DNA of 4,882 bases from a virus (lineage: Duplodnaviria; Heunggongvirae; Uroviricota; Caudoviricetes): the IMG/VR virus record IMGVR_UViG_2602041586_000004; one strand, given 5' to 3'. The translations under genes were made by a program, and so were the position numbers. The first letter of the stretch is position 1; every line of letters begins with the position of its first letter. Below the pieces are notes generated by a model. The model made no database searches, was not told where the DNA came from, and saw nothing but the letters and a program-made list of their open reading frames with translations. This document shows, in pieces, positions 1 through 4,882 of this stretch.

Positions 1-42
1 TATCTGAACATAAAACACTATCAATAAGTTGGAGTCATTACC
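1..42 (+). mobile_element. IS1 right terminus: last 42 bp of the element, including the insB 3' end (1..27, ...YLNIKHYQ stop) and the right inverted repeat
   Basis: Window starts with tatctgaacataaaacactatcaataagttggagtcattacc, which matches the recalled 3' end of IS1. Reverse complement of 20..42 is ggtaatgactccaacttattg, the IS1 right IR. Flanking DNA begins at 43. Confidence 0.85.
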
Positions 43-170
43 AGGCTCCTGATACAAATAGTTTTCTTCTAACAAATAAAGAATACTTATATGGTAAATT
101 TGGTATAAACGGATGGCAAAAATATGTACGATTCTTACGTGCATTCGTTGATGCGTATAAAAATTCCGAC

Positions 171-596
171 ATGATTTATACATATTTGCCTGGTGGTGAT
201 AATTGTACGCTTTCGGCAGACAATAGAATATTCATACCTATACTTGGTCTTGGGCTGATTAATGCAGTAAATGAAAGAGATGTTATAATTGTTAAGCAGT
301 GGCGAAAGCATGAGGGATATAGATATCTGCCATGCTTTGATATATTAAAAATACAGAATAAATTCTATGTAAAAATTAAATATAAAGAAGATGTTTTCTT
401 CCTCAGAAAAAACAAAGATCTTTTACAAGAACTTTCTGGGACAATAGATGTCATCGTAGGTTCTAGGTTTATAAAAGAACTGAAAGAAAGCAGGTCTTTC
501 TCTCGTGTAGAGATAAGCGAGTCAGAGTTATGGGGTATATCAAATAATCCTGTAAACCACGCTCACCAACGAAATCCAAACAAAAAGTGGTCATAA
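171..596 (+). CDS. Hypothetical protein, AT-rich; probably the 3' portion of a larger gene interrupted by IS1 (frame open from 45 to the IS1 junction)
   Basis: 141-codon ORF from ATG 171 to TAA 594..596. The same frame has no stop between 45 and 170, and the other two + frames hit stops at 50 and 70. There is no start codon between 43 and 171 and no clear Shine-Dalgarno before 171. GC is visibly much lower than in the lambda-like block. It sits where lambda carries ral, but has no resemblance to Ral or any family I recognise. Confidence 0.55.
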   Translation: MIYTYLPGGDNCTLSADNRIFIPILGLGLINAVNERDVIIVKQWRKHEGYRYLPCFDILKIQNKFYVKIKYKEDVFFLRKNKDLLQELSGTIDVIVGSRFIKELKESRSFSRVEISESELWGISNNPVNHAHQRNPNKKWS

Positions 597-619
597 CCCG
601 CTCAAGCGGGTTTCATTTT
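597..619 (+). terminator. Rho-independent terminator directly after the AT-rich ORF
   Basis: cccgc (597..601), loop tcaa, gcggg (606..610), followed by tttcatttt (611..619). The T-tract is only on the + strand. Confidence 0.6.
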
Positions 620-648
620 CACGCAAACAAAAGAATAAACACTGCACT

Positions 649-676
649 GTGTATTCATTCCAACGAGTGAATACAC
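649..676. repeat. Perfect 9-bp inverted repeat with 10-bp spacer (GTGTATTCA-N10-TGAATACAC); candidate operator or RNA hairpin
   Basis: 649..657 gtgtattca and 668..676 tgaatacac are exact reverse complements. Lies in the intergenic region between the AT-rich ORF and ea10. Confidence 0.4.
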
Positions 677-783
677 GGAGCAATGTCGCTCGTAACTAAA
701 CAGGAGCCGACTTGTTCTGATTATTGGAAATCTTCTTTGACCTCTAATGTGAGGGCGATTTTTTTCTGTGAGGATATGAACAG

Positions 784-1152
784 ATGTCAAACATCAAAAA
801 ATACATCATTGATTACGACTGGAAAGCATCAATAGAAATTGAAATCGACCATGACTTAATGACAGAGGAAAAACTTCACAAGATTAATAATTTCTGGTCA
901 GACTCTGAATACCGACTCAATAAACACGGCTCTGTATTAAATGCTGTATTAATCATGCTGGCGCAACATGCTCTGCTTATAGCAATTTCAAGCGACTTAA
1001 ATGCATATGGTGTTGTGTGTGAGTTCGACTGGAATGATGGAAATGGTCAGGAAGGATGGCCTACAATGGATGGTAGCGAAGGAATAAGAATTACCGATAT
1101 CGATACATCAGGAATATTTGATTCAGATGATATGACTATCAAAGCCGCCTGA
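784..1152 (+). CDS. ea10: Lambda Ea10-like early protein (122 aa)
   Basis: 369-bp ORF with GAGGA 9 nt upstream of ATG 784. Length and the 72-bp spacing to cIII match recalled lambda coordinates for ea10. Confidence 0.8.
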   Translation: MSNIKKYIIDYDWKASIEIEIDHDLMTEEKLHKINNFWSDSEYRLNKHGSVLNAVLIMLAQHALLIAISSDLNAYGVVCEFDWNDGNGQEGWPTMDGSEGIRITDIDTSGIFDSDDMTIKAA

Positions 1153-1177
1153 GCGCGGCGTTACCGCATACCAATAA

Positions 1178-1198
1178 CGCTTCACTCGAGGCGTTTTT
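1178..1198 (+). terminator. Possible hairpin plus T-tract (attenuator or weak terminator) between ea10 and cIII
   Basis: cgcttc (1178..1183), loop actc, gaggcg (1188..1193) with one G-U pair, then ttttt (1194..1198). Sits just upstream of the cIII Shine-Dalgarno at 1214..1218. Confidence 0.3.
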
Positions 1199-1224
1199 CG
1201 TTATGTATAAATAAGGAGCACACC

Positions 1225-1389
1225 ATGCAATATGCCATTGCAGGGTGGCCTGTTGCTGGCTGCCCTTCCGAATCTTTACTTGAACGAATCACCCGTAAAT
1301 TACGTGACGGATGGAAACGCCTTATCGACATACTTAATCAGCCAGGAGTCCCAAAAAATGGATCAAACACTTATGGCTATCCAGACTAA
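1225..1389 (+). CDS. cIII: cIII, lambda-type inhibitor of host FtsH protease (54 aa)
   Basis: Translates to [54 protein letters not shown], which matches lambda CIII as I recall it. AGGAG at 1214..1218. Not in the supplied ORF track because it is short. Confidence 0.9.
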   Translation: MQYAIAGWPVAGCPSESLLERITRKLRDGWKRLIDILNQPGVPKNGSNTYGYPD

Positions 1390-2664: not shown

Positions 2665-3341
2665 TACCGGACATTATCCTGCAGCGTACCGGGATCGACG
2701 TGAGAGCTGTCGAACAGGGGGATGATGCATGGCACAAATTACGGCTCGGCGTCATCACCGCTTCAGAAGTTCACAACGTGATAGCAAAGCCCCGCTCAGG
2801 AAAGAAGTGGCCTGACATGAAAATGTCCTACTTCCACACCCTGCTGGCTGAGGTTTGCACCGGTGTGGCTCCGGAAGTTAATGCTAAGGCGCTGGCCTGG
2901 GGAAAACAGTACGAGAACGACGCCAGAACCCTGTTTGAATTCACTTCCGGCGTGAATGTTACTGAATCCCCGATCATCTATCGCGACGAAAATATGCGCA
3001 CTGCCTGCTCTCCCGATGGTTTATGCAGTGACGGCAACGGCCTTGAACTGAAATGCCCGTTTACCTCCCGGGATTTCATGAAATTCCGGCTCGGTGGTTT
3101 CGAGGCAATAAAATCGGCTTACATGGCCCAGGTGCAGTACAGCATGTGGGTGACGCGAAAAGATGCCTGGTACTTTGCCAACTATGACCCGCGCATGAAG
3201 CGTGAAGGCCTGCATTATGTCGTGATTGAGCGGAATGAAAAGTACATGGCGAGTTTTGACGAGATGGTGCCGGAGTTCATCGAAAAAATGGACGAGGCAC
3301 TGGCTGAAATTGGTTTTGTATTTGGGGAGCAATGGCGATGA
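2661..3341 (+). CDS. exo: Exo (Red-alpha), lambda 5'-3' dsDNA exonuclease (226 aa)
   Basis: [40 protein letters not shown]...GFVFGEQWR is near-identical to lambda Exo, with a few substitutions relative to my recollection. ATGA overlap with the bet stop. Confidence 0.96.
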
Positions 3342-3357
3342 CGCATCCTCACGATAA

Positions 3358-3771
3358 TATCCGGGTACCGCCTGTAAAGTGTTGCGTGATCAAATAGGCA
3401 AGCATCACAAATGGGTGTTTGTACATACCAAGGCGGCTAAGCGAGCAGATGGAACATCAACGCCTGCGGTCAGGAAGATGCGCATCGACAGCAAGACATC
3501 ATGGCTATCAGCTTGTCGTCGTGCAGGAATTGAAGATTTCCGTTTCCATGACCTCAGACACACCTGGGCAAGCTGGCTGATTCAGTCAGGCGTCCCATTA
3601 TCAGTGCTTCAGGAAATGGGCGGATGGGAGTCCATAGAAATGGTTCGTAGGTATGCTCACCTTGCGCCTAATCATTTGACAGAGCATGCGAGGAAAATAG
3701 ACGACATTTTTGGTGATAATGTCCCAAATATGTCCCACTCTGGAATTATGGAGGATATAAAGAAGGCGTAA
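3358..3771 (+). pseudogene. Tyrosine integrase, C-terminal fragment only (about 130 codons); no start codon, N-terminal and core-binding domains absent
   Basis: Frame opens at 3358 immediately after an in-frame TAA at 3355..3357. The ATG-less translation carries the H-x-x-R box ([11 protein letters not shown]) and the catalytic Tyr (VRRYAHL) but not the upstream box-I Arg region. The supplied ORF begins at GTG 3379, which is an ORF-finder artefact. It ends 15 bp before the argU 3' end, convergent with the tRNA as expected for a tRNA-targeting integrase. Confidence 0.85.
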
Positions 3772-3786
3772 CTGATTGAATTGTAA

Positions 3787-3863
3787 TGGCGCGCCCTGCA
3801 GGATTCGAACCTGCGGCCCACGACTTAGAAGGTCGTTGCTCTATCCAACTGAGCTAAGGGCGC
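3787..3863 (-). tRNA. argU: tRNA-Arg, anticodon UCU (77 nt including encoded CCA)
   Basis: Reverse complement is GCGCCCTTAGCTCAGTTGGATAGAGCAACGACCTTCTAAGTCGTGGGCCGCAGGTTCGAATCCTGCAGGGCGCGCCA. It folds as a cloverleaf: 7-bp acceptor stem, anticodon stem ACGAC/GTCGT, loop CTTCTAA with anticodon TCT, T-loop TTCGAAT. Confidence 0.92.
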
Positions 3864-4760: not shown

Positions 4761-4882
4761 GGTGATGCTGCCAACTTACTGATTTAGTGTATGATGGTGT
4801 TTTTGAGGTGCTCCAGTGGCTTCTGTTTCTATCAGCTGTCCGGTGATGCTGCCAACTTACTGATTTAGTGTATGATGGTGTT
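4761..4882 (+). mobile_element. IS1 left terminus: left IR and insA start (GTG 4816), truncated after 81 bp, followed by a second IS1 left end running to the window edge
   Basis: 4761..4841 matches recalled IS1 positions 1..81 (ggtgatgctgccaacttactgat...cagctgtcc). 4842..4882 restarts with the same 41 nt. The insA frame from GTG 4816 reads MASVSISCP, then runs into the second copy and stops at 4861..4863. Confidence 0.85.
4761..4882. repeat. Head-to-tail direct repeat of the IS1 left end, 81-bp unit, 1.5 copies
   Basis: 4842..4882 is identical to 4761..4801. The first unit is exactly 81 bp. Confidence 0.8.

Follow-up and report, generated by a model that had tools for sequence, protein, structure and literature searches.

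The stretch of DNA considered here, the window, comprises 4,882 nucleotides (IMG/VR virus record IMGVR_UViG_2602041586_000004) and is an E. coli chromosomal segment with a decayed lambda-like prophage at the argU tRNA-Arg/fimZ site. From left to right it contains an IS1 end (1..42), an AT-rich open reading frame (ORF) at 43..596, the genes ea10, cIII, kil, gam, bet and exo, an integrase fragment, tRNA-Arg, fimZ and further IS1 ends. The ORF is the subject of this analysis. It is a pseudogene remnant on the + strand, consisting of part of codon 106, codons 107–289 and the stop codon of a gene of the phage 434 gene 48 type (phrog_12139), and the last 14 residues that it encodes are those with which Nun of phage HK022 ends. 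We lean towards reading it as what is left, in non-functional form, of a long transcription-arrest factor of the Nun type whose targeting domain is new. The features that an earlier note on this DNA had described were all found in the sequence, while its interpretation, that of a moron with a speculative role in defence or anti-defence, is overall only partly supported.

The truncated frame and its intact counterpart

The first 42 nucleotides of the window (+ strand), which are the IS1 right end (the end of insB plus the inverted repeat), run on, in an E. coli locus 100% identical to the window (L002), into an annotated IS1 transposase pseudogene that ends just upstream of the window-equivalent point. 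In that locus cusS lies on the far side of IS1; an IS1-associated deletion, with its junction at 42/43, therefore took the immunity region, N and all remaining prophage sequence on that side along with codons 1–105 of the gene. No stop codon interrupts the frame of 45..596 between the window start and TAA 594..596, and its earliest in-frame ATG, GTG or TTG is ATG 171, as had been noted from the sequence; the surmise made from this, that IS1 had removed the 5′ part, proved right. Where IS1 is absent the frame runs upstream to an ATG, giving a gene of 289 codons (megablast, 5,426 complete E. coli genomes), an example being the E. coli prophage copy at L001 5685..6554. The gene is present in 93 of the 5,426 genomes (~1.7%), in 83 of them at at least 80% of its length. 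The remnant amounts to 184 of the 289 codons and its retained part, residues 107–289 of a phrog_12139-type protein, is 99% identical to the intact 289-residue homologue; start codon, ribosome-binding site, promoter and the first 105 codons are all lacking. IS1-truncated copies start matching at nt 317 of the intact gene, and among the matches listed those designated H109–H111 begin there exactly like the window, which starts inside codon 106.

The 141-codon ORF that begins at the first in-frame ATG (171..596, +), and is entered in RefSeq as the 'hypothetical protein' WP_024167976.1, is not a complete gene. No Shine-Dalgarno sequence precedes ATG 171, and the RefSeq protein is an annotation by-product of the truncation. 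The practical message for the window is modest: its ORF is a pseudogene fragment and the 141-residue protein an artefact of truncation.

The gene has also suffered elsewhere. In viral contigs L020, L028, L030, L043 and L023 it has been damaged independently: in four of them the frames are open for 276–284 codons only, with later starts, and in one a 46-codon stub has kept nothing but the tail. The 5′ part seems to be lost repeatedly.

Recovery of the full gene with its neighbours from E. coli prophages and from phage 434, one of the checks that had been proposed, gave its identity. Phage 434 was the only phage matched by tblastn of phage genomes. There the same gene, CPT_434_48 (gene 48), with the codons 1–105 and the expression signals that the window copy has wholly lost, occupies the same position between N and ea10, and over 289 residues its product, gp48 (UMO75312.1), has 96.9% identity with the intact copy from the E. 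coli prophage. The product name given for it in GenBank OL657226 is 'Nun C-terminal peptide-containing protein'. The description of the gene as uncharacterised is thus correct as to function and incorrect as to annotation: the 434 genome announcement contains no discussion of gene 48 and a literature search found no functional study of the long protein, so that the gene is already named in one GenBank record and its function is unstudied in the literature found. The intact homologue matches positions 1–289 of the 289 of phrog_12139, a PHROGs family without assigned function, at E 8e-203. No NCBIfam or PADLOC match was obtained for the intact protein, and Pfam at E <= 10 gave a single sub-threshold match, to KH_SLS1, and no Ral-type family; no family of mundane function matches. 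A D-Ala-D-Ala ligase found by PDB sequence search (E 0.04) was dismissed, being without support from fold searches.

A Nun peptide at the C-terminus

The textbook example of a protein halting RNA polymerase is Nun, which wedges a short peptide into the elongation complex and has been treated as a peculiarity of HK022-like phages. The 14 tail codons of the remnant (552..593, +), encoding VNHAHQRNPNKKWS, specify a sequence identical to HK022 Nun residues 96–109, in a product in which no motif had been recognised. A PDB sequence search aligned chain N of PDB 6ALG (6alg_N) with the last 14 residues, 14 of 14 being identical, and phrog_5632, 'Nun-like transcription termination factor', was matched at E 3.5e-5. 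In an hhalign comparison between the long family and a diverse set of eight short Nun-like proteins, alignment was confined to the last 17 columns, with a probability of 97.6%.

Cryo-EM has shown that Nun contacts the elongation complex through N97, H98, H100, R102, K106, K107 and W108 (PMC5386594), all of which are present in the long-protein tail. Removal of the last 13 residues leaves Nun inactive and unable to bind RNA polymerase, and the arginine-rich motif at the N-terminus of Nun only localises it to lambda nut RNA (PMC5386594). The long protein has a basic N-terminus, in which a predicted helix starts at residue 16 and residues 9–34 hold 6–7 Lys/Arg. Homology of this basic helix to the arginine-rich motifs of N or Nun was shown neither by hhalign nor by Pfam.

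The folded body

The profile searches and structure prediction that had been suggested for the translation of 45..596 were run on the intact protein. The AlphaFold2 (AF2) model, made from 7 sequences, has a mean predicted local distance difference test score (pLDDT) of 63.7 and a predicted template modelling score (pTM) of 0.62; an earlier model from 4 sequences (pLDDT 46.8) was too poor and was not used. The pLDDT is 70–88 over most of residues 5–220 and below 50 for 220–289, the linker and tail. In the model a strand (72–77) is followed by helices (80–146) and then by strands and a helix (153–217), an order that fits the WED-REC-WED succession of the recognition lobe of TnpB, which in TnpB itself binds the guide–target duplex and the transposon-associated motif, TAM (PMC13639567). 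The top 12 Foldseek matches in the PDB all belong to one superfamily, TnpB/Cas12, the best being ISDra2 TnpB with only WED and REC resolved and RuvC unresolved, and in BFVD the top matches are giant-virus TnpB/Fanzor-like 'transposases'.

Residues ~70–220 are therefore predicted, as far as the model goes, to form the strand, helical bundle and sheet of a WED plus REC lobe. Unlike TnpB and Cas12, the protein would have nothing of the RuvC/TNB lobe (DED triad, zinc finger): the confident model ends near residue ~220, no Pfam RuvC or zinc-ribbon model is matched, and there is no significant profile match to TnpB/Cas12. The link with TnpB is probably one of fold-level resemblance as modelled, and not demonstrated membership of the family. 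No paper linking TnpB with Nun was found in a literature search.

From its start the intact protein comprises a pair of basic N-terminal helices with a Lys/Arg-rich beginning, a folded region (~70–220) predicted to be TnpB-like, a linker of ~70 residues, of low model confidence and predicted to be flexible, within which a ELKESRSFSRVEIS motif is conserved, and the Nun 14-mer. What the window encodes ahead of the tail, residues 106–275, covers the linker of low confidence and, before it, the later REC-like helices and the WED-like strands and helix (to ~217). Missing, together with the expression signals, are the initial strand of WED, the initial helix of REC and the helices of the N-terminus. 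Since the fold is cut in half and nothing is left to drive expression, the window copy cannot act, and it is an inert pseudogene.

Operon position and proposed role

The intact gene, which is preceded by the ribosome-binding site GAGG, begins 8 nt past the stop codon of N and ends before ea10. The 8-nt gap leaves no room for a promoter of its own, and the gene therefore belongs to the pL operon. In lambda the N–ea10 interval contains sieB, orf28 and ral, whose place the long gene takes. An N-type gene ends 1–22 nt upstream in all long-form loci with enough upstream sequence except L005 and L033, and these upstream N genes span three different types of N arginine-rich motif. In L005 and L033 the long gene is the first after a cI-like repressor, in the N/Nun slot, with no N between. 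One prophage, L004, has an N-like protein, the long form and a short Nun-like ORF in tandem. A terminator-like hairpin stands directly 3′ of the long gene in the window lineage, in L004 and in L005, so that the long gene would be transcribed with N before the first terminator.

From its tail and its predicted architecture we infer that the intact protein is a long Nun-type transcription-elongation arrest factor. Its body and N-terminus would bring it to certain elongation complexes or nucleic acids, where the tail would then insert into RNA polymerase and block translocation as Nun does; the purpose is likely to be exclusion of competing phages or modulation of N-dependent transcription, though host transcription may also be what it acts on. 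A part in phage–phage exclusion is plausible, because of the precedent of Nun and not because of where the gene lies.

Several points weigh against this reading. H93 and R94 of the short Nun proteins, which contact upstream DNA, are not kept in the long family, where the equivalents are N/P, Q/A, K/A and S/I. No homology to the arginine-rich motif of Nun or N could be shown, hhalign aligning the tail alone and the Pfam N-peptide models being unmatched, and the basic stretch at the N-terminus is Lys-rich and variable. The TnpB-like fold rests on the 7-sequence AF2 model and is not confirmed by sequence profiles: none of 26 family members matches the Pfam OrfB/TnpB models PF12323, PF01385 and PF07282 at E <= 10, and hhalign against a TnpB N-terminal profile gave only 2–6% probability in four runs, even though the best local alignment in all four was of the structurally equivalent first strand and helix (..YIIEIRPTERQLFLLNSVF..). 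In E. coli and 434 the DNA of the tail stands exactly at a mosaic joint with nun phages, and the origin of this allele by recombination is real. Finally, if RNA polymerase is jammed by a protein that the phage makes together with its own N, some mechanism of self-avoidance is needed.

An alternative to a weapon against other phages is that the intact protein is a partner or antagonist of the N-modified elongation complexes of its own phage, for example a brake or timer on pL transcription. Such self-regulation would suit the tight coupling to N across three types of arginine-rich motif and the position of the gene ahead of the first terminator-like hairpin, by which it would be made together with N. 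It fits poorly with L005 and L033, where the gene is present and no N is upstream, and with Nun, the sole characterised carrier of the tail, which acts on a foreign phage (PMC5386594). We consider it rather unlikely.

Some details of these loci may be added. In L005 the 310-nt leader before the long gene (2801..3110) holds a boxA-like TGCTCACTAA. This leader folds no better than shuffled sequences (z = -0.75) and no Rfam family lies beside the gene; a put-like or guide-like RNA there was dropped from consideration. In L004 the short Nun-like ORF 3′ of the long gene (9038..9347, +), uncalled and of 102 residues, has an arginine-rich motif, KGRRRALRMQQRR, a tail, VVNHAHQRRPNKKWS, and its own terminator hairpin. 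The N genes upstream of the long gene at L001 5353..5676 and, in phage 434, at L003 3669..3992 are lambda-type. Over the last ~25 codons (...SEFGITCQGRQKVKGKSIPLA) this N departs from the lambda N sequence, and the 3′ end of N may therefore contain a second mosaic boundary.

Recombination scar or selected tail

The mosaic joint at the tail raises the alternative that the Nun tail is a scar, a foreign AT-rich gene having been fused in frame with the final 14 codons of a displaced nun, with the protein acting through its body alone, without interaction with RNA polymerase. Similarity to the DNA of nun phages starts exactly at the first tail codon (552) and reaches ~165 nt past the stop codon; at the same point the GC content steps from 33% to 43%, and an in-frame joint is expected by chance in 1/3 of cases. 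The module so delimited (552..757, +; GC 43%), held in common with the 3′ end of nun and the region downstream of it, matches phages HK75, mEpX1 and PA28 and Stx1a phages at 93–97% identity. The DNA from ~551 to ~757, with the last 14 codons, the stop codon, the hairpin and what lies beyond, is not part of the AT-rich foreign body, which takes up 43..551 (+; residues 106–275; ~33% GC) and over 43..550 has 32.7% GC, compared with 50–52% for gam, bet and exo and 37.7% for ea10.

The hairpin concerned, AACCCGC-TCAA-GCGGGTT plus an interrupted T-run (595..621, +), follows directly on the stop codon and is terminator-like; its stem (595..612) has 7 bp, 5 of them G-C pairs, and is followed by TCATTTTC. 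Terminator-like sites number 3 in 1..1300, where 0.7 are expected from shuffles. A terminator belonging to the ORF had been claimed here: hairpin and T-run are indeed present after the stop codon, but they lie inside the shared module and so belong to it and not to the AT-rich ORF. Towards the end of the module, 737..765 (+) is the counterpart of a terminator annotated in phage 434 (L003 5011..5040) and in HK75, where it reads GCCCTC....GAGGGC plus a T-run. In the window the stem is weakened by substitutions (GACCTCTAATGTGAGGGC), which is consistent with decay of an unexpressed operon, and the site went uncalled in the terminator scan.

What makes a mere scar improbable is the behaviour of the tail in other lineages. 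Homologues retrieved by their bodies (68, 47, 42 and 37% identical; metagenomes and Morganella morganii) all end in VNHAH.R...KKW(S), the set, from E. coli, Morganella and metagenomes, spanning 35–68% identity. In the seven body-retrieved sequences 9 of the 14 tail positions are invariant as against 49 of 275 elsewhere (Fisher p = 2.6e-4), and among all stretches of 14 residues in the protein the tail is the best conserved. The peptide is preserved, by way of synonymous changes, in lineages that have bodies only 35–47% identical and in which the tail DNA has itself diverged. Tail codons do vary synonymously between lineages, but the counts come from loci selected by pattern, are biased by the search pattern and deserve less weight; the argument from conservation rests for that reason on the body-retrieved homologues. 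A pattern scan of viral contigs found the tail at the end of only two classes of ORF, short Nun-like ones of 83–124 residues and long ones of 289–290, the long class being the more frequent. The tail is, as judged from these sequences, a family feature under selection, even though the present allele sits at a mosaic joint.

More distant relatives point the same way. A profile search of 1.84 billion cluster representatives yielded ~20 (P0011–P0031; loci L063 5234..6070 (-), L064 6072..6920 (+), L065 6882..7934 (-) and L066 5082..6026 (-)), of 213–473 residues, which match only profile positions ~75–220/280 (a word-indexed search with a 26-sequence alignment had given almost only close relatives). 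They have neither the N-terminal 70 residues nor the Nun tail and end instead in a different conserved motif, ...YSRVDF..LEG+.V.GGLPSLGKRR. Non-lambdoid relatives thus carry another basic C-terminal tail, equally conserved, and a C-terminal effector peptide looks to be general in the family, which again counts against a scar. These relatives occur in metagenomes and, in accessory regions that are not prophage-like, in Dechloromonas, Paraburkholderia, Burkholderia and Crenobacter (Betaproteobacteria). Their Betaproteobacterial neighbours (an H-NS-domain protein, a YhcG nuclease, a Phd antitoxin, a helix-turn-helix protein and a Clp-like ATPase) gave no functional lead, and a scan of viral contigs for a GGLPSLGKRR-type tail found nothing.

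A RuvC-less recognition lobe of TnpB/Cas12 fused to the Nun peptide could be a nucleic-acid-directed elongation arrest factor and belong to a so far undescribed class of miniature TnpB-derived proteins with interchangeable C-terminal 'warheads'. The same body with a different C-terminal peptide in Betaproteobacteria would define such a class. This is possible though doubtful.

Two improbable readings: anti-restriction, and an active remnant

The earlier note placed the ORF in the lambda ral position, regarded it as a moron with its own terminator and, while calling the idea speculative, thought of a role in defence or anti-defence. The position is roughly that of ral, the gene filling the whole of the interval from N to ea10, and the composition of the ORF is AT-rich as described. 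A horizontally acquired moron equivalent to Ral is nevertheless very improbable: the gene lacks a separate promoter, being coupled to N in the pL operon, its terminator is common to nun phages, no Ral-type Pfam family appears at E <= 10, PADLOC and NCBIfam give no match, and the sole recognisable motif points to RNA polymerase and not to restriction enzymes. Pfam at E <= 10 shows no sequence similarity of the long protein to lambda Ral; map position alone is common to the two.

Continued activity of the remnant itself, by way of a product of 141 residues that carries the tail and is made from ATG 171 by read-through from IS1, is scarcely credible, for although the IS1 transposase frame reads toward the remnant, tail and linker are intact, and the same truncation is found in several genomes (most simply by descent), ATG 171 has no Shine-Dalgarno sequence before it, no promoter-like site rises above chance, the predicted fold is cut within the REC-like helices, and the prophage around the remnant is heavily decayed, its immunity region absent and int truncated.

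Relation to known systems

With HK022 Nun the long protein has in common the C-terminal 14 residues, including every residue of that stretch reported to contact RNA polymerase, RNA or DNA. Both genes lie in the pL operon, next to N or at its site, and have the same DNA module downstream; in both proteins the N-terminus is basic and what precedes the tail is predicted to be flexible. It differs from Nun in its length (289 versus ~109 residues) and in the large folded body, which Nun lacks, in mostly co-existing with N rather than replacing it, and in having no detectable homology to the arginine-rich motif and no conservation of H93/R94. The short Nun family as a whole (83–124 residues) has no folded domain, in contrast to the ~215-residue confidently modelled region of the long protein. 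Like lambda N, the long protein is made early from the pL operon; its N-terminus is basic, its C-terminal segment would be expected to extend into RNA polymerase, and the two genes are adjacent. There is, however, no sequence similarity between them, and the tail is of the Nun type (arrest) and not of the N type.

A further comparison is with the nuclease-dead derivatives of TnpB and Cas12 (TldR, Cas12k and dCas12f-like regulators), since the long protein would, like TldRs, be a TnpB-like scaffold that controls transcription in a prophage. In TldRs the RuvC scaffold is retained, and repression comes about through DNA binding directed by a guide and not through a Nun peptide (10.1101/2023.11.30.569447). 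No guide RNA was found for the long form (Rfam has no RNA family near the gene, though it would not hold an undescribed guide RNA), and directly 3′ of the gene in three lineages there is the terminator-like hairpin. The architecture is a variant of the Nun kind, with a possible and unexpected ancestry in TnpB.

That the Nun peptide is carried by a folded scaffold three times as large and apparently TnpB-like, which is conserved in prophages across the Enterobacterales and present in the classical laboratory phage 434, suggests a portable module that phages couple to targeting domains of different kinds. Should the TnpB-like fold be borne out, this would be a further route by which transposon-derived recognition lobes are recruited to the control of transcription. 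Existing Nun assays and Nun-resistant rpoC mutants make the idea directly testable.

The remainder of the window

The genes from ea10 to exo had been described as lambda-like, and in the identical locus L002 the annotation gives lambda-type ea10, cIII, kil, gam, bet and exo. A cIII thermoregulator RNA (Rfam) lies at 1212..1270, and tRNA-Arg(TCT) at 3787..3863 on the minus strand. At 3342..3771 the end of exo is joined, after ~25–35 nt, to the C-terminal third of a DLP12-type integrase, a fragment noted in RefSeq as 'missing N-terminus'. Deletion has removed the 5′ part of int together with the xis/b-region, so that the prophage is truncated at both ends.

Directly 3′ of fimZ there is an 81-bp fragment of the IS1 left end (4761..4841), and from 4842 a second, fresh IS1 left end, so that the IS1 ends at 4761..4882 are in a nested or tandem arrangement. 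At least 80% of this junction is covered in only 3 complete E. coli genomes.

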